Positions 1-9,463 of a stretch of 64,000 bases of DNA are shown piece by piece. How positions within the stretch are numbered: the first letter of the stretch is position 1; the number at the start of each line of letters is the position of its first letter. A program made the position numbers and the translations under genes. This DNA is from Bacteroidota bacterium (lineage in GTDB: Bacteria; Bacteroidota; Bacteroidia; Chitinophagales; Saprospiraceae): NCBI GenBank assembly GCA_041164265.1, contig JBEAPR010000067.1, forward strand, positions 425 through 64,424. Direction: 5' to 3'. The notes under the pieces were generated by a model. That model did no database searches. It was given only the letters and a program-made list of their open reading frames with translations, and was not told the DNA's origin.

Positions 1-822
1 ATTTTAGAACGTAAGGGGGTGCAACTAAAGTTAATTCCGAATACTCCATTTAATCATACTGCAACCCAAGACAAAGTTGGATTTTTCACAGTTGATGATG
101 TTAAAAAACTCATCACTGCTAAAACTAAAATTGTCGCCCTGAGCCATGTACAATTTACCAGCGGGTTTGCGATTGACCTCGCTGAAATTGGTGCCCTTTG
201 CCAATCTAATAATATAGATTTGATTATCGATGCGGCTCAGAGTATGGGATGCTTGCCCATCTATCCAGACGAATTTGGAATTTCAGCGGTGGCAGCAGCT
301 GGGTGGAAATGGTTAATGGGACCTTTTGGTTCGGGTGTTTTCTATACCAGCCCCTCCCTTCGGGAAAAATTAGACCCTGTGTTGATAGGTGCGGAAACGA
401 TGGAACAAGGCTTTGAATACCTCAACCATGAGTGGACACCACATCAAAGCGCCAAAAGATTTGAGTATTCCTCCTCCTCAGTAGCTCTTTCAGCTGGGTT
501 AAGAGAAAGTGTAGAAAGCGTGCATTTTGCCCAACCTTCTATAGAATCGATTAGAGATCAAGTTATTCATTTACAAAATCACTTTCTCCAACATCTTGAA
601 AACACCCAAATAGTCCCTATTCTTCATGAAGATAGGCACCGATCTGGAATACTGGCTCTTTCAGTTGCTGATCCCAAGGACCTCGTTCAATATTTAGCAA
701 GCAATCAAATTATATGTACCCCGAGAAACGGGTTTGTAAGAGTAGCCCCATTTGTTCACCATACGAATCAACAAATGGAGCATTTGGCTGAGGTCATCAA
801 TAATTATAAAGGCCTTGCTTAA
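1..822 (+). CDS. Class V-fold PLP aminotransferase (cysteine desulfurase/CsdA-like), C-terminal part; the 5' end lies outside the window
   Basis: Frame 1 is open from nt 1. AAAGWKWLMGPFGSGVFY resembles the class V PLP-lysine block. Stop TAA 820-822 shares the tetranucleotide TTAA with the stop of the convergent gene. Confidence 0.7.
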   Translation: MLERKGVQLKLIPNTPFNHTATQDKVGFFTVDDVKKLITAKTKIVALSHVQFTSGFAIDLAEIGALCQSNNIDLIIDAAQSMGCLPIYPDEFGISAVAAAGWKWLMGPFGSGVFYTSPSLREKLDPVLIGAETMEQGFEYLNHEWTPHQSAKRFEYSSSSVALSAGLRESVESVHFAQPSIESIRDQVIHLQNHFLQHLENTQIVPILHEDRHRSGILALSVADPKDLVQYLASNQIICTPRNGFVRVAPFVHHTNQQMEHLAEVINNYKGLA

Positions 823-1946
823 CCCATCAAAATAGTACTGATTACAGAGCAAAATTTTGCAGTTTGGTCTGGAGTCCCCGTACTAATTCTACACCAATCG
901 TTATATGGGGGAAATGGTCTTCCGACCAGAACACCTAACCGCTCGGCTCGTGACTGTAATTCCTGAATGGGAATGCCAGATTTGAAAAATACAAAATTAC
1001 CATGGGTGCGAATGTATTTCAATCCCATTCTATCTAGCGTCTGATAGATTTGCTCTTTGGCTTCTTCATTTAGCGCTAAACTTTTGTCATAGAATGACTG
1101 GTCATCAAGCGCGGCTTCTGCAGCAAACATAGCAGGGATGTTCATGCCGCCCATGGATAAACTTTTTAAGGAGGCGGCGATATTAGGTTGGGTCACTAAA
1201 TATCCAATTCGCATACCTGCCAATCCATATACTTTAGAGAAGGTTTTCGCAACGATAACTTTAGCTCCTTCTTTAACCAAAGATACTCCTGTAGGGTAAT
1301 TAGGCTCCCTGATATAATCAATATAGGCTTCATCAATAAAAACCATGGATTTCTTAGAGATTCTTCTACCAAAGTCCATAAAAGAATCTCCTTCTAATAA
1401 AGTTCCCGTTGGATTGTTCGGATTGCAAAGATAAACCAAAGCGGTTTGATCAGTAACAGCCCTCTCCATCCCCGGTAAATCATGCACCAGCTCATCATTA
1501 AGAGGCACATAATTGATTCGAGCTCCAAATTGGGCCGCATAGCTCATTAGCGCCAAAAAAGTTGGGGTCGCAGCGACTATTTCACTACCAGCCATGCCAT
1601 ACATCATCCCTGCCATTTTTAATCCTTCTGTGGATCCAGCAGTTAATACGATAGAATCGGTACTAACTCCCTCCTTTGCTGCAATTTTTTCTAGTAATTG
1701 GCCTGGATAAAAGGAGGGATAACGGCAGGCATAATCCATTCCTTCAGCTATCTTTTTCCTGACATAGCCTGAGGGGCCATAAGGATTTTCGTTAGCACTC
1801 AGTCGAATCAAATCAGATGACATATTGGAGGAATGCAACCCATGATTATCGGGAAATGCTTGAAGGACCCCTGTTCCACTAAGTAAAGCTGCAGATCCTG
1901 ATAAACCAGCTTTTTTTAACCAACCCCTTCTATTAATTTTAGTCAT
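819..1946 (-). CDS. Class I/II PLP aminotransferase, histidinol-phosphate aminotransferase (HisC)-like, with an N-terminal twin-arginine signal
   Basis: Motifs LSANENPYGPS, CNPNNPTG and KTFSKVYGLAGMRIGY (PLP-Lys block). N-terminus MTKINRRGWLKKAGLSGSAALLSG fits the Tat motif plus h-region. Confidence 0.8.
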   Translation of the reverse strand: MTKINRRGWLKKAGLSGSAALLSGTGVLQAFPDNHGLHSSNMSSDLIRLSANENPYGPSGYVRKKIAEGMDYACRYPSFYPGQLLEKIAAKEGVSTDSIVLTAGSTEGLKMAGMMYGMAGSEIVAATPTFLALMSYAAQFGARINYVPLNDELVHDLPGMERAVTDQTALVYLCNPNNPTGTLLEGDSFMDFGRRISKKSMVFIDEAYIDYIREPNYPTGVSLVKEGAKVIVAKTFSKVYGLAGMRIGYLVTQPNIAASLKSLSMGGMNIPAMFAAEAALDDQSFYDKSLALNEEAKEQIYQTLDRMGLKYIRTHGNFVFFKSGIPIQELQSRAERLGVLVGRPFPPYNDWCRISTGTPDQTAKFCSVISTILMG

Positions 1947-1958
1947 AATACTTTCATT

Positions 1959-2876
1959 TTAAGGTAAATCTACAGATCTATAGGCTGCTAATAAGGCCAT
2001 TTCTCCTTCTTTGCCCGGTTGGGCATTTCCGTGCTCCATTCCTAAGATACCATCAAAACCTCTCTCATTAATCACCTTGAATACATTTTTGTAATTGATT
2101 TCTCCCGTGGTGGGTTCTTTCCTCCCTGGATTGTCTCCAATTTGGAAGTAACCTATTTCATCCCAAGACTTTTCAATATTAGGAATCAAATTTCCTTCCT
2201 GAATCTGCTGATGGTAGATGTCAAATAGGATTTTACAAGATGGGCTGCCTACGGATTGACATATCTCAAATGCTTGACTGGATTTGGTTAAAAATAATCC
2301 CGGATGATCTCTAAAATTCAATGGTTCTAAAACCATAACTATACCATGCGGCTCTAACAAACCAGAAGCTTGTTTGAGGGTCTCAATAACGTGAGCTGTC
2401 TGGTATCCCATATCCTGTCTCAAGTCCAAATGCCCAGGTACCACTGTCATCCATTTGGCATTAACACGCTTGGCCACCTCTATGGAGCTTTTAATATCTT
2501 CGAGAAATTTAGCTCTTAATTCCAAATCCCCACTGGCTAAATCCGCCTTCTGCCAAGAAATAGAATGGGCAACGAAAACTCCCATTCGCAATCCTCTTTT
2601 CGCCATAGTTGCTGCCATTTGTTCTTGCAGCTCAACTGGACGGCCTTTCATTCCATTATCTTCGAATGCTGAAAAGCCCATATCGGCCATGAAATTTAAT
2701 TGATCAATAGGGTCTTTGCCCGCTAAGTTGGTAAACATGCCCAAGTGAGGTGCAAAGGCGAGTTTGAATTTTTCCTCTACAACATTCATTTTCGAGGTAG
2801 AGCTTACATTAGCCAATCCTGTGCCCATTGCAGCCATTGAGAGTGCGCTAGAGCTGATAAATTTTCTTCTTTTCAT
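1959..2876 (-). CDS. Hydroxypyruvate isomerase (Hyi)-like / xylose-isomerase-like TIM-barrel protein with Tat signal
   Basis: Hyi-type blocks VLEPLNFRDHPGLFL, FDIYHQQIQEGNL and FQIGDNPGRKEPTTGEINY. N-terminus MKRRKFISSSALSMAAMG. Confidence 0.8.
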   Translation of the reverse strand: MKRRKFISSSALSMAAMGTGLANVSSTSKMNVVEEKFKLAFAPHLGMFTNLAGKDPIDQLNFMADMGFSAFEDNGMKGRPVELQEQMAATMAKRGLRMGVFVAHSISWQKADLASGDLELRAKFLEDIKSSIEVAKRVNAKWMTVVPGHLDLRQDMGYQTAHVIETLKQASGLLEPHGIVMVLEPLNFRDHPGLFLTKSSQAFEICQSVGSPSCKILFDIYHQQIQEGNLIPNIEKSWDEIGYFQIGDNPGRKEPTTGEINYKNVFKVINERGFDGILGMEHGNAQPGKEGEMALLAAYRSVDLP

Positions 2877-2878
2877 AA

Positions 2879-3847
2879 TCAGGGTATTTTTTGATGATGA
2901 TTAAATGTTTTGTATGTGACCTTGGGAAATTTTTCAGTGATCATGAGCTCCCCTTCAATTGGAGTTAAAATACTCAGAGTAGAGGCTAGACCATCAGCTA
3001 AGGCTGCTGAAGGTGCTTGAACACTTAATACTTGATGATGAGTTATTCCATAACCCGTTCTGGGATCAATGATATGAGAATAGTGAATTCCCTCATGGAG
3101 AAGGTATCTATAGGTACTTCCAGAGGTCGCAATTGCAGTATTAACTAGATTCACCTCCTTAATTTCTTGATAGCCTCCTTCAATACCAATATGCCAACTG
3201 TGTAGAGTAGGAGGAGCATCTCCAATTAATAAATCTCCACCAGCATCTATAAGGTAAGCATAAATTCCATAAGATTCTAAAATCATGGCTAATCGGTCAG
3301 CTGTGTAGCCCTTTGCTATTCCACCAAAATCGAACTTTATAGAATCGGCTAAAAATACAATAGAGTGGTCCTCTTGATGTAATAATATCCGGTTAAAACC
3401 AACCTGTTCTTTGGCTTTTAATACCTTATTTTTTTCTGGAAATATTCCCGATTTCTGCGCTTCCCTCCACAATTTAGATAAAGGTCCTATAGTTGGGTCA
3501 AAGACCCCATTTGATTGTTGGTATAATTCATTGCTTAACCATAAAACCTCAAATAATTCAGTAGGGATAACCTTCCGTTGGTTTAAAGTTAATTGAGCAC
3601 TTAAAAGATTAATATAACTATCAGATCGATAATCGCTGAATAATTGCTCTAACCTTTCTAATTCCATAAATGAGGCCATAGAGGCTTCGTTCGCTTGTCT
3701 TTCCTCAATCGCATAGAACGTGAGCGTAAAGAGGGTACCCATTCCCGGTTTGGAAAAGGTAAACTTTGACCACTCTTGACAACTTAAAGAAGAATGGGAA
3801 AGTAAAAAGGGTAAAAATACCCAAATGGATACCCTCCTAATTATCAT
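2879..3847 (-). CDS. apbE: FAD:protein FMN transferase (ApbE family), exported
   Basis: ApbE blocks FDPTIGPL, FDFGGIAKGYTADR, DAGGDL, TSGSTYRY and HIIDPRTG. Hydrophobic N-terminal signal. Confidence 0.85.
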   Translation of the reverse strand: MIIRRVSIWVFLPFLLSHSSLSCQEWSKFTFSKPGMGTLFTLTFYAIEERQANEASMASFMELERLEQLFSDYRSDSYINLLSAQLTLNQRKVIPTELFEVLWLSNELYQQSNGVFDPTIGPLSKLWREAQKSGIFPEKNKVLKAKEQVGFNRILLHQEDHSIVFLADSIKFDFGGIAKGYTADRLAMILESYGIYAYLIDAGGDLLIGDAPPTLHSWHIGIEGGYQEIKEVNLVNTAIATSGSTYRYLLHEGIHYSHIIDPRTGYGITHHQVLSVQAPSAALADGLASTLSILTPIEGELMITEKFPKVTYKTFNHHQKIP

Positions 3848-3849
3848 AG

Positions 3850-5172
3850 CTATATGACCTTAGTTTCACCAGGTATAGCAACTGGATAATAACCATCCTC
3901 ATTAGGCAGTATAGATGGATTGGCATCCCATGCTAAAGTTGCTGGACTTAAATCAATATTGGAATTAATGGCATCATCCCATTTGATGAGTTGGCCGGAA
4001 TAAGTTGCCATTCGGCCCAAAATGGAAGTCATGGTACTATTAGCGGCATTGGTAGCGTCCTCAAATTTATATTCACCTTTAACTACCGCATCAAAAAGCA
4101 AATTATGCTCTACCTGATAGGGATTGGGATTTTCTCCTTTGTATTCATAAAGCGTATGCCCACTTTTAGTTAAAATAAGTCCTGGTTTAGGTGCTGAACC
4201 TGTGCTACCTTGAAAGGCCTCGGTGACTCTTGAATCAGTTCCCGGCATATGCCTACATTGGCTAAACATTCTAGATCCATCTGCATATTCAAATTCAACA
4301 ATGTGATGGTCAAAAATCTCACCGTGTTCTTTTCCTGTTCTAACTAATCTACCTCCTGTACCATAAGCTGCAATTGGATACGCTTGTTTGACCCAGTTGC
4401 CTACATCGAGATTGTGAATGTGCTGTTCCGTAATATGATCTCCGCATAGCCAGTTAAAATAGTACCAGTTGCGCATTTGGTACTCCATTTCAGTCATTCC
4501 TGGTTGGCGTTCCCTTACCCAAACCCCTCCTGAATTCCAATAAACTCTTGAGGTGTGAATATCTCCGATAGCCCCCTCTTGTAATAATTCAACCCAGGTT
4601 AAATATTGTTCTTCATAATGTCTTTGTAGCCCTACAACTACATTGAGTTTTTTATTCTTAGCTTCTTGAGCAGCAGCTAAAACTCTTCTTACCCCAGGAG
4701 CATCTACTGCTACTGGCTTTTCCATAAAAATATGTTTATCTGCTTTTACTGCAGCTTCAAAATGGGTAGGCCTGAAACCTGGAGGAGTAGCTATGACCAC
4801 TACATCGCATAGAGCGATTACTTGTTTATAAGCATCAAAACCGGCAAATTGTCTTTCAGGAGTGACCTTGATACGGTCATTGGGTAATTCTGAATCTGCA
4901 ATAGCATTTTTAATGTTTTCAAGGCTTTTTTCAATATTATCAGCAAAAGCATCGGCCATTGCTACTAATTGAACATTTTGACCACTTAAAAGGGCTTGAA
5001 CTGCGGCACCTGTTCCTCTGCCTCCACATCCAATTAATCCAATTTTAATGGCGTCATCCATTTGATTAAACCCTTTGGCACCTGCTAAAGAAGGAGCCAT
5101 AATTATAGACCCAGCTGCAAGTCCTGAAGCTTTTACAAATGCTCTACGTTTCATTGTTTTTCTAGTTTCCAT
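3850..5172 (-). CDS. Gfo/Idh/MocA-family NAD(P)-dependent oxidoreductase with Tat signal (periplasmic dehydrogenase)
   Basis: Tat motif MKRRAFVKASGLAAGSIIMAPSLAGA. Rossmann block IGLIGCGGRGTGAA. EKP motif (FMEKPVAV) typical of the family. Confidence 0.85.
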   Translation of the reverse strand: METRKTMKRRAFVKASGLAAGSIIMAPSLAGAKGFNQMDDAIKIGLIGCGGRGTGAAVQALLSGQNVQLVAMADAFADNIEKSLENIKNAIADSELPNDRIKVTPERQFAGFDAYKQVIALCDVVVIATPPGFRPTHFEAAVKADKHIFMEKPVAVDAPGVRRVLAAAQEAKNKKLNVVVGLQRHYEEQYLTWVELLQEGAIGDIHTSRVYWNSGGVWVRERQPGMTEMEYQMRNWYYFNWLCGDHITEQHIHNLDVGNWVKQAYPIAAYGTGGRLVRTGKEHGEIFDHHIVEFEYADGSRMFSQCRHMPGTDSRVTEAFQGSTGSAPKPGLILTKSGHTLYEYKGENPNPYQVEHNLLFDAVVKGEYKFEDATNAANSTMTSILGRMATYSGQLIKWDDAINSNIDLSPATLAWDANPSILPNEDGYYPVAIPGETKVI

Positions 5173-5183
5173 TTTGTTATATT

Positions 5184-6086
5184 TTAGTTCTTCAATGCTT
5201 TTTCAAAAAATGTTGCTACCGATTGGGCATCAGGCTGAACAATTGGACGAACCAATCTGAAACCCACAAATGGAGCATCGGTATTCCACCATTTGCTTTT
5301 TGGAATCTGTGGATCTCTTTTTTGCCACTGAGCAGTAGAAGCTATTTTGGTTTGACAATTACAGTCTGTTTTTGACGATTGGTAATTACTGCCCATTACT
5401 GACGTTGGATGCTTTTTCAAAGGCCATAGAATACCTTTTTCCCCTTTTGATTCTAATTCCAAATAATAATCTTCTGAATACCCATCCATGGTCCACTCAC
5501 TAACATTGCCAATTAAGTCATAAACTCCCCATTGATTGGGTTTTTTGGTTCCAGTAGTATGGTATTTTTCATCGCTGCTTTCGTCAAACCAAGCAAATTC
5601 ATCTGGCGATACTTCAGAATAAGAGGGGGGTAATTTTTGTCCACTTCCCTCGCTACAAACATATTGCCATTCTGCTTCGGTGGGTAGTCGGAAAAAAACG
5701 CCAGTTTTCTTATACAGCCATTGACAATAGGCCAGAGCAGCCCTTCTGGTCATACTCACTGCCGGAAATCCCCCTTCTTTCCCCATCCCGTAACTAAAAT
5801 CTATATATTGAGGAGTGGGTCGTGAGATGGCGTCTAATTTATAGGGTAGGGTGGGATGTGTTGAAATTTCAGTATCTAATTGTTTCTCTTGAAATAAGGC
5901 AAATTCGTCCCAGGTAACCTCACGAACTCCCATCCAAAACTCAGGTATTTCAGCGCCTGAAATTTTTCCCGAAGGGATGGATACCATCTCGAATGAAATA
6001 TCAGATCCGGGAATTTGAATATGGGTAACTTTTTGAGCTAGGGCATAATTGGCCGTTAAAACTACAAGTGCAGCTAATCTTATCAT
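5184..6086 (-). CDS. Formylglycine-generating-enzyme (SUMF1/FGE-sulfatase) domain protein, secreted
   Basis: Sec signal MIRLAALVVLTANYALAQ. FGE-domain blocks RLPTEAEWQYVC, NQWGVYDLIGNVSEWT and GFRLVR. Confidence 0.75.
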   Translation of the reverse strand: MIRLAALVVLTANYALAQKVTHIQIPGSDISFEMVSIPSGKISGAEIPEFWMGVREVTWDEFALFQEKQLDTEISTHPTLPYKLDAISRPTPQYIDFSYGMGKEGGFPAVSMTRRAALAYCQWLYKKTGVFFRLPTEAEWQYVCSEGSGQKLPPSYSEVSPDEFAWFDESSDEKYHTTGTKKPNQWGVYDLIGNVSEWTMDGYSEDYYLELESKGEKGILWPLKKHPTSVMGSNYQSSKTDCNCQTKIASTAQWQKRDPQIPKSKWWNTDAPFVGFRLVRPIVQPDAQSVATFFEKALKN

Positions 6087-6163
6087 GGTTTTTTAAAAAA
6101 AGTTGGTGGTTTGTTTCGTTCAAATATAGTAAATCAAAATTTTTAAATGAATGGAATAGTATA

Positions 6164-6195
6164 AAGATAAAAAAAGAGGCCCCAAGGACCTCTTT
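6164..6195 (-). terminator. Rho-independent terminator downstream of the TBDR/lipoprotein operon
   Basis: On the minus strand: AAAGAGGTCCTTGGGGCCTCTTT hairpin (7+2 bp stem, one mismatch) followed by TTTTTTTATCTTTAT. Confidence 0.7.
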
Positions 6196-6219
6196 AAATG
6201 TTTCATTTTTTACTGATAA

Positions 6220-6762
6220 TTATTCAATAACAACTTGGAAGGTCACCTCCACATCAGTTTCACCGGTACTACATGGTATTGAATTGTCCTTATCCGGTAG
6301 ATGTTTTAGGCTAATGGTTAAAGTTCCATTACCTGGTTGGAGAGTGGTCAAAACTGCTTCTAGTCCTAGAGGTAGGCCGTTTTCGTCATCATCTGATATT
6401 GTTATCGAACTTATGTTTCCAGAAAAATCAAAACAAACTAGATGTTCTGCTGATTCTTCTGCTACCTCAAGAGTGATATCTTCTAAATCCATTGGGTCAG
6501 AGGCATCTAAAAATTGAATACTCAAAGCATAAGTAGCTAAGGAAGCAAGTGTAATTTCATCGAGTGAAGGAGCATTTCCGCCCGGCCCATCTGGATCGGA
6601 AAAGGAAAAAGTCTGAATATTACCCAATTCATCGGTAAATGTCATAACCACATCGGTAATCAATTCTTCTTCATTGTCCATAGTCTGATCTTGGTCTTTT
6701 TCACAGTAAACCAAAATCAAGGGTAGAACTAAAAACCAAGTTAATTTCCATATATTTTTCAT
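6220..6762 (-). CDS. Small lipoprotein of unknown function, co-operonic with a TonB-dependent receptor
   Basis: Signal plus Cys (LILVYC-EKDQDQ). Acidic/K-D residues after the Cys resemble the Bacteroidota lipoprotein surface-export signal. Only 1 nt separates it from the upstream TBDR gene. Confidence 0.6.
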   Translation of the reverse strand: MKNIWKLTWFLVLPLILVYCEKDQDQTMDNEEELITDVVMTFTDELGNIQTFSFSDPDGPGGNAPSLDEITLASLATYALSIQFLDASDPMDLEDITLEVAEESAEHLVCFDFSGNISSITISDDDENGLPLGLEAVLTTLQPGNGTLTISLKHLPDKDNSIPCSTGETDVEVTFQVVIE

Positions 6763-6763
6763 A

Positions 6764-9085
6764 TTAAAATTTTGTTTTTAAGGTTAAAATTAAATTCCTC
6801 CCCATTTCGTCCGAGTAATACCGGAGGCGGTTTAGATAACTCCGATAGCGTTTGTTTAAAAGATTATTGGCCGTGAAAGTAATAGAAATGGGAGTTTGTC
6901 CAGCATTCCAATTCCAGCCCATATTCCAATGAATTAATCCATAACTCGGAGGGGGAGGAGCGTAGTCGGCGTCGGACGGAATTCGATTCTGGGATCCGAC
7001 ATATTCCCAACTTAATTTAGTGAATAAATCGTCTAGAGTCCCACTTTTTAGGGCTGGTCGATATTCAACAGCCCAATGCGTTTGATTAGCTGGCATATAA
7101 ATTAACGGCTCATTAGTTTGCCGATTCTCCCCTTTTAAGAAAGATGTTTTATTGCTAATTACCCATTGAGGTCCAATTGGTGCGGCCCATTCCCATTCGA
7201 TACCTTGAATCACTGCATTGGTCTGAAGATATTCAAATCCAGGGAAAGCACCTCGGATGGTCAAAACCGGCTGTTGTGTGGGCTGCAGATAAATGAAATC
7301 TCGTATTAAATTGTGGTACAAGGATAAAGATCCCGTAATTTTTGAATCTGTTGGCAGGTGGATACTAGCTGTACTGTTGATTGCCCTTTCGGGAAAAAGG
7401 TTCCTATTACCAATTTCATAAGAGGCAGACCCGTGATGCACGCCTTCGCTATATAATTCGTTCACGTGGGGAGGACGCCACAACCAACCAGTATTGGCTT
7501 TAATCGTCCAATTATTTTTTAAAGTATAAATGAAACCTACTACTGCAGACAGATTGAAAAATTCGTTCTGCACATTGATGGTATCTCTGCCTTGTGTGCT
7601 TACTTCAAATTTTTTATAGTCTAGCCTTAGTCCTCCTTCTATGGCCAGAGGGAAAGGAAATTTTTTCCAGGTTTCCATCCAATACCATCCCACTCCATTC
7701 ATGGTATAATTAGGAATTAGACCTCCTCGATCAGCGGTATTGTTTTGTCTGGTCCATTGAGTTCCCATCTTACCCCGCAATGATTTCCAATTACCGTGTT
7801 TCCACCCCAAATCTACCGTATGGGTAGTGATTTCAAAAGTGATGTCCCCAATTTCCTTTTCAGCGGGTAAAACCCCAAAAGGCCGATGGGCATCAAATTC
7901 CTCTCTTCGGTTAAATTGTCGGCTAACTTGGAGTTGAATCTCATTGGAAGAGCCCCATTCATAGATGTAATTGCCTTTGAATAATTCATGAACGACTCGT
8001 TGTTGAGGACGATCAATGGTATAATTAAAATCAGGTTGGATTAAAGGCTCACCCCGTTCTATAGCATTTTTCAAATCGGTCAAGTTGCCTATATGAGCTC
8101 CGGAAAAAATTCCAAAAGTCGAGGAATACCTAGAGTAATAAAATTGTATTTTATTCCTTTGGAACAATCTCTGCAAAGACCAAGAAAAATTATGCTCTGA
8201 TTGACCCGTATTATCGAGAAAGTAATCAGGAGTTTTGAGGCTTCCTCCTCTTTTCAAGGTTCCTTGGATTCGATATCCAAGTTTTGACCATCCTCCTGAA
8301 TATCCCTCCAATAAGCCTGAGGCAACTCCCATACGACTATTACTGTGTCCCTGCAAATGAATGGATCCACTTATTCCCTTTTCTTTAGGTAAGGAAGCTG
8401 GATTGGATTTGATGATTCCACCGAGGGCATTGCTACCGTATTCTAAGGTGCCTGCACCTTTTATAACAGTAATTTCTTCCAAAGTGAAAGGATCTATCGA
8501 TGGAGCATGCTCCAACCCCCATTGTTGACCTTCTTGAATAACCCCATTATTGAGTAGCAAAATCCGATTAGAATGCATTCCTCGAATCATAGGTTTAGCT
8601 ATAGTTGCGCCGGTTCTTAAAACGGATACACCGGGTAAATTTTCCAGAGCGGTGGCTAAGTTAAGTCCCTGATTAGTAGTCAGCTCTATTCCATCAACGA
8701 GTTGAGATATTTCACTTTTGGGAATCGGGGCGGCCTTACCACCTATTACGACTTCTTCTAGACGCAAGCCCTCCATGCTTATATTTAAAAATAAGATAGT
8801 GTCTTGTTGAATATCAACAACCCAAGTGCGGGATAGCAAACCTACCCTACTTATTTCTAATTCAATGATTCCTGGGCATACTTTACCTAATTCAAAATAC
8901 CCTTTTTCATTGGCCAATGTACCTGTTTCCGTTCCCCTAATGCTAATGGATGCATAATCTAAAGGACTTGCAGTTGTAGTATCTAAGACATACCCTTTGA
9001 GGATAATATCACATTTTTTCTGCTGTCCTTGAATGATCCCAATCACTAGCCAAAAGAGGATTCCGGTAATTACCGATTTCCTCAT
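6764..9085 (-). CDS. TonB-dependent receptor with N-terminal CarboxypepD_reg-like domain
   Basis: Signal peptide. Carboxypeptidase-regulatory-like N-domain (GYVLDTTTASPLDYASISIRGTETG). Plug blocks (VSVLRTGATIAKPMIRGM, NRILLLNNGV). Beta-barrel C-terminus ending TLKTKF. Confidence 0.9.
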   Translation of the reverse strand: MRKSVITGILFWLVIGIIQGQQKKCDIILKGYVLDTTTASPLDYASISIRGTETGTLANEKGYFELGKVCPGIIELEISRVGLLSRTWVVDIQQDTILFLNISMEGLRLEEVVIGGKAAPIPKSEISQLVDGIELTTNQGLNLATALENLPGVSVLRTGATIAKPMIRGMHSNRILLLNNGVIQEGQQWGLEHAPSIDPFTLEEITVIKGAGTLEYGSNALGGIIKSNPASLPKEKGISGSIHLQGHSNSRMGVASGLLEGYSGGWSKLGYRIQGTLKRGGSLKTPDYFLDNTGQSEHNFSWSLQRLFQRNKIQFYYSRYSSTFGIFSGAHIGNLTDLKNAIERGEPLIQPDFNYTIDRPQQRVVHELFKGNYIYEWGSSNEIQLQVSRQFNRREEFDAHRPFGVLPAEKEIGDITFEITTHTVDLGWKHGNWKSLRGKMGTQWTRQNNTADRGGLIPNYTMNGVGWYWMETWKKFPFPLAIEGGLRLDYKKFEVSTQGRDTINVQNEFFNLSAVVGFIYTLKNNWTIKANTGWLWRPPHVNELYSEGVHHGSASYEIGNRNLFPERAINSTASIHLPTDSKITGSLSLYHNLIRDFIYLQPTQQPVLTIRGAFPGFEYLQTNAVIQGIEWEWAAPIGPQWVISNKTSFLKGENRQTNEPLIYMPANQTHWAVEYRPALKSGTLDDLFTKLSWEYVGSQNRIPSDADYAPPPPSYGLIHWNMGWNWNAGQTPISITFTANNLLNKRYRSYLNRLRYYSDEMGRNLILTLKTKF

Positions 9086-9124
9086 TGTTTAATTAAATTT
9101 CAAAAGCTAAAATGGTACCACAAT

Positions 9125-9463
9125 TTAGTGGTAAGAAGGGGGCGCTCTGGGAATGATTAATTGGAGGAGAAAAGATCGATAAAGATGTTGATATTGATCA
9201 AAACCTAAAACTTTTCTTTGATGAAACCGCGGAGCTAATGCAAAAGGTTCGGTTAATTCAAAATTTGAAACGGAAAATGAACACAAATAACAGTGCTCGT
9301 GGTTAAAACTAGAGTCGTGTATATGTTGATCTCCATTTTCAGAATCACAAAGGGCTTTTGGAGTATTGTGAAAATGCAAATGATGCACCTCTCTAATGAG
9401 TGTAGGACCCAAGAGAAATAAAAAAAGAAACCAGACTAAGTATTTATGCCCTAAACACTTCAT
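9125..9463 (-). CDS. Small His/Cys-rich membrane-anchored protein, first gene of the TBDR operon
   Basis: One N-terminal hydrophobic helix, then HHLHFHNTPKALCDSENGDQHIHDSSFNHEHCYLCSF (9 His, 3 Cys within 37 residues). 39 nt upstream of the TBDR gene. Confidence 0.55.
   Translation of the reverse strand: MKCLGHKYLVWFLFLFLLGPTLIREVHHLHFHNTPKALCDSENGDQHIHDSSFNHEHCYLCSFSVSNFELTEPFALAPRFHQRKVLGFDQYQHLYRSFLLQLIIPRAPPSYH

Follow-up and report, generated by a model that had tools for sequence, protein, structure and literature searches.

A five-gene operon of exported proteins in a marine Saprospiraceae genome, read as a candidate periplasmic redox module with an added PtaA-type aminotransferase

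The window analyzed here is a stretch of 64,000 nucleotides (contig JBEAPR010000067.1, positions 425 to 64,424; G000:C67:425-64424) from a marine Saprospiraceae metagenome-assembled genome (MAG) that is 2.46 Mb in size and 86% complete. At positions 819-6086 the minus strand of the window carries five closely spaced genes, which encode a protein with the fold of formylglycine-generating enzymes (FGE), a Gfo/Idh/MocA dehydrogenase (Gfo), an ApbE-family flavin transferase, a Hyi-like TIM barrel and a pyridoxal phosphate (PLP)-dependent aminotransferase. The operon is read here as a composite, with a probability of roughly 0.55: a periplasmic redox module, recurrent in several orders of Bacteroidota, to which an aminotransferase of the PtaA type has been added in this genus. 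Bacteroidota and related phyla contain great numbers of Gfo/Idh/MocA enzymes exported by twin-arginine translocation (Tat), and these enzymes drive a newly found oxidative breakdown of glycans. The locus offers a compact candidate answer to the question of how exported NAD(P) enzymes dispose of their electrons, namely a fixed FGE-like partner together with a private flavin transferase.

Gene organization

The five open reading frames (ORFs) are separated, in the order from 819 to 6086, by 12, 2, 2 and 11 nt. Their Pfam families agree with those named in the original prediction, which had described a minus-strand operon with gaps of 2-12 nt. The features are as follows, in the direction of transcription.

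6087-6219, minus strand: intergenic region of 133 nt, holding the terminator of the upstream unit and the -7 box of the operon
5184-6086, minus strand: Cys-less PvdO-like FGE-fold protein, 300 amino acids (aa); PF03781 FGE-sulfatase, 7e-25 (Pfam)
3850-5172, minus strand: Gfo/Idh/MocA dehydrogenase, 440 aa; PF01408 GFO_IDH_MocA, 1e-12 (Pfam)
2879-3847, minus strand: ApbE-family FAD:protein FMN transferase, 322 aa; PF02424 ApbE, 6.5e-61 (Pfam)
1959-2876, minus strand: Hyi/OtnI-like TIM barrel of the xylose-isomerase fold, 305 aa; PF01261 AP_endonuc_2, 1e-34 (Pfam)
819-1946, minus strand: HisC/PtaA-like PLP aminotransferase, 375 aa; PF00155 Aminotran_1_2, 8e-43 (Pfam)

A strong intrinsic terminator with a 10-bp stem and a T-run, at 6195-6173, ends the upstream TonB-receptor/lipoprotein unit. 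It is followed at about 6128-6121 by a -7 box of the Bacteroidota TAnnTTTG type (TAtaTTTG), which lies some 35 nt ahead of the start of the FGE-like gene. With both elements in the 133-nt gap, the five genes are read as a transcription unit of their own, and the operon is confirmed as real from its sequence.

Conserved gene neighborhood

Eighty loci around Gfo orthologs were fetched from Saprospiraceae, Lewinellaceae, Chitinophagales, Cytophagales (Dyadobacter, Runella and Larkinella), Pedobacter and one Rhodothermales MAG. The window proteins were placed in these loci by tblastn and by clustering of the neighboring ORFs, and partners were counted in the 52 loci flanked by 5 kb or more on each side. 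Across five Bacteroidota orders the Gfo orthologs are 56-73% identical to the window protein, those of the 80 loci 56-71%. In 44/52 loci the FGE-like gene accompanies Gfo, and in 40/52 it lies directly upstream of Gfo on the same strand. An ApbE gene was found in 29/52 loci and the Hyi-like TIM barrel (orthologs 48-68% identical) within 5 kb of Gfo in 21/52; all three partners occur together in 12/52. The aminotransferase was not found near a Gfo ortholog in any of the 80 loci (0/52 with 5-kb flanks), and the TonB receptor, lipoprotein and mini-protein encoded upstream of the operon are likewise absent from all 80. The other recurrent neighbors are lineage-specific housekeeping genes, e.g. those for ABC-F and chorismate synthase. 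YceI occurs in six loci. A single locus (L006) has a DUF1080 gene; there this 3-keto-glycoside-hydrolase gene adjoins the module and a sulfatase gene lies 3 kb away.

To judge from these neighborhoods, the conserved unit is the FGE-like protein plus the Tat-exported Gfo, with or without ApbE and with or without the TIM barrel; it is widespread and uncharacterized in aerobic Bacteroidota. Culturable carriers of the FGE-Gfo pair include Dyadobacter, Pedobacter and Runella. The original prediction had given the family and the Sec signal of the FGE-like protein correctly and had assigned it no specific role, yet by the same counts it is the dehydrogenase's most constant partner (44/52). The pairing of Gfo with the TIM barrel, also foreseen, recurs as a periplasmic pairing of the keto-sugar type with both proteins on the Tat route. 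Conservation of the five-gene order was not borne out, as the aminotransferase is missing from the 80 loci and stands alone in other genera. A literature search found no paper linking ApbE with MocA-type enzymes, or FGE with MocA and xylose-isomerase-like proteins.

Export signals

Twin-arginine (RR) leaders are present in Gfo (KRRAFVK), the TIM barrel (KRRKFIS) and the aminotransferase (NRRGWLK), each followed by a mildly hydrophobic stretch and an A-x-A-like site. A Sec-type leader (...YALAQ) begins the FGE-like protein, whose mature form comprises residues 19-300, and ApbE starts with what is probably a lipoprotein leader (...SLSC). The RR leader is kept in 76/80 Gfo orthologs, 21/29 TIM barrel orthologs and 119/120 aminotransferase homologs. 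The Pfam TAT_signal model matched none of the three RR leaders, and the Tat assignment is made because of the RR motif and its conservation in orthologs. We infer from these motifs that all five operon products are exported, three of them via Tat, in agreement with the original prediction.

FGE-like protein and its heme-fused relatives

True FGE binds copper with a pair of catalytic cysteines (CxxxxC) near the C-terminus. No conserved cysteine pair was found in 36 orthologs of the FGE-like protein, which show the consensus LRSAxR, and the C-N-C of the window protein is confined to a subset of Saprospiraceae. For lack of such a pair, the protein is not regarded as a formylglycine-generating enzyme. 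The closest solved relative of the family profile is PvdO (PDB 5hha, 6.6e-31), a protein required in the final oxidation of the pyoverdine chromophore; the score against the NCBIfam PvdO model (NF051459) is 49.7 bits, with a cut-off of 500.

Residues D85 to T91 form the heptad D-A-I-S-R-P-T, which aligns in register with the ApbE tag DxxSGAT. The heptad D-A-x-[T/S]-R-P-[S/T] is present in 59/59 FGE-like orthologs; the family as a whole has roughly 40,000 members at E below 1e-30. The same aligned site reads DxxSGPT in 120/120 heme fusions (counted in a set of 120 proteins; a regular expression run on translated metagenome loci gave nothing), D-G-D-T-R-P-G in PvdO and, in one FGE-like ortholog (P0341, E 8e-128), DAISGAT, the exact ApbE tag. 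In the AlphaFold model of the FGE-like protein, pLDDT falls below 50 only at loop residues 83-91.

A genome of the same class (G091) encodes a 523-aa fusion of a NapC/NirT four-heme module with an FGE-like domain (31% identical to that of the window), followed by genes for a Tat-Gfo and a Tat-TIM barrel. This triad was found in 35/35 gut-metagenome loci and also in SusC/SusD loci of a Parabacteroides sp. (L125) and of Limibacterium fermenti (L126), both of which hold a second, cytoplasmic-type Gfo gene and the latter also a GH43 enzyme. The SusC/SusD setting suggests glycan-derived substrates in gut Bacteroidales. ApbE lies within 5 kb of 0/35 of the heme-fused, SGPT-type modules versus 29/52 of the stand-alone, RP-type modules. 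In another protein (P0374, 595 aa) the FGE-like domain is joined to a PSCyt1 monoheme domain with a 100-aa insert. These independent fusions to heme modules argue that the FGE-like domain takes part in electron transfer. A search for heme-FGE fusions in 300 genomes at E 1e-60, a threshold that was too strict, returned the source genome only. A search of protein representatives with the FGE profile gave mostly multi-repeat FGE proteins among the best 150 matches, together with a handful of usable orthologs and fusions. Four further proteins of about 722 aa (P0352, P0354, P0358 and P0364) combine the FGE-like domain with an N-terminal FG-GAP propeller.

Prediction of a complex of Gfo with the FGE-like protein gave a median ipSAE of 0.49 (runs 0.02, 0.49 and 0.62) versus 0.01 for the best control, with partner pLDDT of at least 86 and contacts that agreed between runs to at least 81%. 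In the calibration of the tool the mark was reached by 58/80 solved complexes and 2/110 mismatched pairs; at scores of 0.60 or less it was reached by 7/80 solved complexes and by both passing mismatches. The prediction weakly favors an interaction of the two proteins.

ApbE paralogs and flavinylation tags

The operon ApbE matches PF02424 with 206.6 bits over model positions 1-258 of 266, and its translation shows the blocks GGIAKGY, DAGGD and YSHIIDPRTG. The source genome has two ApbE genes, the second of which, on C138, is 31% identical to the operon copy. In 31/34 comparisons the module ApbEs of other loci and orders score higher with the operon copy than with the C138 copy, and the operon ApbE is therefore assigned to a dedicated lineage. 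The canonical tag, D-x-x-[S/T]-G-A-[S/T], is absent from the operon products and from the orthologs searched (0/62 FGE-like, 0/80 Gfo and 0/29 TIM barrel), which upholds the earlier remark that the neighbors of ApbE lack an [S/T]GA[T/S] motif. Genome-wide, canonical tags are carried by NqrB/NqrC and a few unrelated ORFs. Nothing linked to this operon was found among the candidate ApbE substrates on C142 and C81 or the neighbors of the C138 ApbE.

Two side observations concern tag-bearing ORFs elsewhere in the genome. An ORF of at least 269 aa that runs off the contig end (G000:C142:15200-16009; L115:6204-7010) has no Pfam match and a perfect heptad, DGFTGAT; the gene before it, in a GH9/deacetylase/acetyltransferase cluster, is that of a PF12831 FAD-dependent oxidoreductase, and the ORF product may be an unrecognized ApbE substrate. 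Two NqrC-like FMN_bind ORFs (G000:C52:2382-2840 and C92:1513-2250) have near-identical DxISGATITGDGV tags. The former is a 153-aa frame close to a contig end and might reflect strain variation or duplication in the assembly.

Gfo dehydrogenase and TIM barrel

The Gfo protein shows the build of GFOR-like enzymes, with an N-terminal Rossmann fold and a C-terminal alpha/beta domain. GCGGRG and FMEKP can be read in its translation, and its EKP motif and D-x3-H-type catalytic block are those of active members of the family; mean column identity among orthologs is 67%. The best fold matches of its AlphaFold model (pLDDT 83) are inositol and sugar dehydrogenases and GFOR. It is presumably exported with NAD(P) bound. 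Among the curated NCBIfam equivalogs it belongs to none: the match to BT_2158_fam (NF058561) reaches 39.7 bits, with a cut-off of 750, and covers residues 8-220 (the Rossmann half) only. Assignment to GH109 or another solved family was considered and rejected, the sequence matches being to the generic Rossmann half and the structural matches to generic Gfo folds. The TIM barrel scores 138 bits with the hydroxypyruvate isomerase model and 135 bits with that for 2-oxo-tetronate isomerase (cut-offs 353 and 325, respectively). By these scores it shares a fold subfamily with these isomerases and is a separate protein family.

Proposed mechanism

The Tat-exported Gfo would carry its bound NAD(P) over the membrane and, acting on a sugar, glycoside or cyclitol, oxidize a hydroxyl group to give a ketone. 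The Hyi-like TIM barrel, exported by the same route, would isomerize this keto product or carry out an elimination on it. Because a bound nicotinamide is not exchangeable in the periplasm, Gfo would need an electron outlet, and the FGE-like partner may be that outlet by re-oxidizing the NAD(P) of Gfo. The module ApbE, in turn, would attach flavin mononucleotide (FMN) to the Ser/Thr that ends the D-A-x-[T/S]-R-P-[S/T] loop of the FGE-like protein. The aminotransferase, which works alone in other Bacteroidota, may or may not use the keto product of the module here.

The relay itself, with FMN on the heptad, is a tentative part of this scheme. Equally tentative is the wider proposal that Cys-less FGE-fold proteins could be an unrecognized class of ApbE substrates, in which the Ser/Thr of D-x-x-[S/T]-x-P-[S/T] would bear FMN, take a hydride from the NAD(P)H of the Tat-Gfo and pass on single electrons. 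The heptad would then exist in three variants: RP in aerobic Bacteroidota, GP in the heme-fused forms of Bacteroidales and GA in rare members. For the RP variant, an ApbE paralog that co-evolved with it would be required, namely the operon copy. If true, periplasmic sugar dehydrogenases of the NAD(P) type would gain a missing link to respiration, and the known substrates of ApbE would extend to a new fold and a less strict sequence tag.

Several points weigh against this scheme. The heptad and the ApbE tag differ at both small residues (G to R and A to P), a pair at which milder changes already halve flavinylation in vitro (PMC12052999), and PvdO, for which no flavin is known, shares D..TRP, so that this part of the motif may be structural in this FGE subfamily. 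The operon encodes no heme protein or other onward acceptor. ApbE is not within 5 kb in 23/52 Gfo loci, and the module is mostly located among housekeeping genes, not in a polysaccharide-utilization locus. The score of the Gfo and FGE-like complex lies in the weak band, and one of the three runs failed (0.02). Finally, the Gfo enzymes of oxidative glycoside cleavage can be redox-neutral and then need no acceptor.

The last point underlies the alternative that survives best, although we consider it improbable. Here the module would be redox-neutral, of the BT2156-BT2160 or GFOR type: Gfo would oxidize and re-reduce, the FGE-like protein would be a carbohydrate-binding or specificity subunit, and ApbE would serve some other target. 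Such a role fits the FGE fold, which is a C-type-lectin-like binding fold with some structural members (GldK/PorK), and it fits the lack of a canonical flavin tag in the module, the DUF1080 gene beside the module in L006 and the placing of the related Bacteroidales triad in SusC/SusD loci with GH43. A second sugar as acceptor has been proposed by Liu et al. (PMC8121099). Left unexplained are the fusions of the FGE-like domain to heme modules of the quinol-dehydrogenase and PSCyt1 types, and the existence of a separate ApbE lineage that accompanies the heme-less form.

Aminotransferase

The best NCBIfam matches of the aminotransferase are PRK09105 (245 bits), hisC (TIGR01141; 238 bits, or 237.7) and PtaA (216 bits). 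All three scores are below the curated cut-offs of 444, 276.55 and 500 bits, respectively. The PRK09105 alignment spans residues 2-372, leader included, and the protein is best described from these scores as a distant member of the Tat-exported PtaA/PRK09105 type, not an equivalog. That it might be an ordinary HisC, a possibility raised with the original prediction, is contradicted by the sub-cut-off score, by the conserved Tat leader and by the presence of a genuine hisC, which is found without a leader in hisGDCBHA on C145 and scores 344.6 bits, above the cut-off. The original prediction had also called an exported class I/II aminotransferase unusual. PtaA of Pseudomonas fluorescens is a transaminase that Tat exports in folded form, bringing PLP into the periplasm, and it occurs in non-pyoverdine species as well (Ringel et al. 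2017; PMC6206403); with this studied precedent, the window protein is of a known kind. PtaA-type exported transaminases are in fact common in Bacteroidota.

Orthologs of the aminotransferase elsewhere are 45-55% identical over the full length and keep the Tat leader. They are single genes with unrelated neighbors, on four long contigs and in 17 other genera of the family. In all ten other genera of the family that hold both genes, Gfo and the aminotransferase lie on different contigs. The five-gene order is kept only in a genome of the same genus (G007) and in metagenome contigs that are 87% identical. From this distribution, the aminotransferase is a local add-on, joined to the operon only in this marine genus. 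A 38%-identical paralog in another genome (L109; G060:C11:42031-46149) is directly preceded by a Gfo-like gene of 25% identity, which is a second, independent adjacency of the two kinds of gene in the family.

These data bear on the original prediction of an oxidation-isomerization-transamination pathway, according to which all five genes would act together: a sugar or cyclitol would be oxidized, the ketone isomerized and the product transaminated to an amino sugar or aminocyclitol, or the reverse. The exported operon and the pairing of Gfo with the TIM barrel stand; the single pathway is considered unlikely. The gap of 12 nt between the TIM barrel and aminotransferase genes, which holds no terminator, implies co-transcription, and in favor of one pathway can be counted the order kept in G007 and the metagenome contigs as well as the distant adjacency in L109. 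Among 60 other genera of the family, moreover, the aminotransferase is present in 11/16 Gfo-positive versus 7/44 Gfo-negative genomes; little weight is given to this difference because the genomes are kin and the counts are not independent. Against one pathway stand the absence of the aminotransferase from 80/80 Gfo loci, its solitary occurrence in the 17 genera and on the four long contigs, and its separation from Gfo by contig in the ten genera with both. Its protein class points the same way. The original prediction had drawn an analogy to keto-sugar transamination by NtdC/NtdA. NtdA-type sugar aminotransferases belong to the DegT/DnrJ/EryC1 family (PF01041), to which the window protein has a match of 15.7 bits (E 0.009), below the cut-off of 19.8 bits. 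The protein is instead of the amino-acid class (PF00155, HisC/PtaA-like), and without a DegT match the analogy is weakened, failing at the level of family.

Neighboring genes

The region upstream of the operon, at 6220-9463 on the same strand, is a separate unit, which travels with the five-gene operon in the closest relatives only. A further gene reads toward the operon from the other side. The features are as follows.

within 6220-9463, minus strand: His/Cys-rich mini-protein, 112 aa
within 6220-9463, minus strand: TonB receptor of the CarboxypepD_reg type (haem/ZnuD-like models)
within 6220-9463, minus strand: lipoprotein, 180 aa, without a Pfam match
window 1-822 (G000:C67:119-1246), convergent to the operon: class-V PLP enzyme, 375 aa, cysteine-desulfurase/EgtE-like, with a weak PvdN match

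The stop codon of the class-V PLP enzyme overlaps that of the aminotransferase by 4 nt, and no signal peptide was found in this enzyme.

With such neighbors, the operon might be thought to tailor a metallophore for the adjacent island of TonB receptor, lipoprotein and feoAB, in the manner of periplasmic pyoverdine maturation with its PvdO-like and PtaA-like proteins. Among solved structures the FGE-like protein is nearest to PvdO, and the aminotransferase has PtaA among its top NCBIfam matches; within 10 kb there are also feoAB, two TonB-dependent receptors and the His/Cys-rich mini-protein. This role is nevertheless very unlikely. The terminator parts the receptor unit from the operon, and receptor, lipoprotein and mini-protein accompany Gfo in 0/80 loci. 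All scores with pyoverdine models are far under their cut-offs, a signal peptide is missing from the convergent class-V enzyme, and the stretch examined showed no genes for nonribosomal peptide synthetases or other siderophore synthesis. The sequence already contradicts the reading of the FGE-like protein as a true formylglycine-generating enzyme for sulfatases, with Gfo giving the reductant and the aminotransferase as an ordinary HisC: the Pfam FGE-sulfatase match, the sulfatase gene 3 kb from the module in L006 and the 238 bits of the hisC model are outweighed by a family without the Cu-binding Cys pair (C-N-C only in the Saprospiraceae subset), by the leaderless hisC (345 bits) on C145 and by an aminotransferase that is under the hisC cut-off and bears a Tat leader in 119/120 homologs.

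Comparison with known systems

The system BT2156-BT2160 of Bacteroides thetaiotaomicron comprises a Tat-exported Gfo, a DUF1080 hydrolase and a TIM barrel, and the electron acceptor of the Tat enzyme was left open (Liu et al. 2021, PMC8121099). The operon of the window resembles it in the combination of a periplasmic Tat-Gfo with a TIM barrel of the xylose-isomerase fold and raises the same question of NAD(P) re-oxidation. It differs in having no DUF1080 hydrolase, second Gfo or SusR, whereas the system as described for B. thetaiotaomicron has no FGE-like partner or ApbE.

The known substrates of ApbE are NqrC, NqrB, RnfG, NosR, DUF2271 and DUF3570 (Meheust et al. 2021, PMC8238504). In vitro, changes of G to A or of A to V in the tag halve flavinylation (PMC12052999). 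Like these substrates, the FGE-like protein is extracytosolic and encoded beside an ApbE gene, and its heptad fits the tag at positions 1, 4 and 7. Unlike them, it has R-P instead of G-A at positions 5-6, and the carrier is FGE-like and not FMN_bind.

PvdO shares with the FGE-like protein a periplasmic FGE fold without catalytic cysteines and the D..TRP of the heptad. It has Gly where the FGE-like family always has Ser/Thr, however, and is not paired with Gfo. PtaA and the aminotransferase of the window are both HisC-like class I/II PLP aminotransferases with a Tat leader; they differ in that the latter reaches 216 bits of the 500 set as the PtaA cut-off and that its host is a member of the Bacteroidota without pyoverdine genes.

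The NapC/NirT-FGE fusions of Bacteroidales (e.g. L118:3000-4568 and Parabacteroides P0411) share 31% identity with the window protein in their FGE-like domain, including the C-terminal block W..DPQ.PKS.WW, and their genes lie directly upstream of those for a Tat-Gfo and a Tat-TIM barrel. The fusions, which are likewise uncharacterized, differ from the window protein in having four hemes, a membrane anchor and the heptad DxxSGPT, with no ApbE nearby (0/35), and the Gfo and TIM barrel of their loci are 35% and 21% identical, respectively, to those of the window. The locus of the window is a variant of known periplasmic keto-sugar systems.

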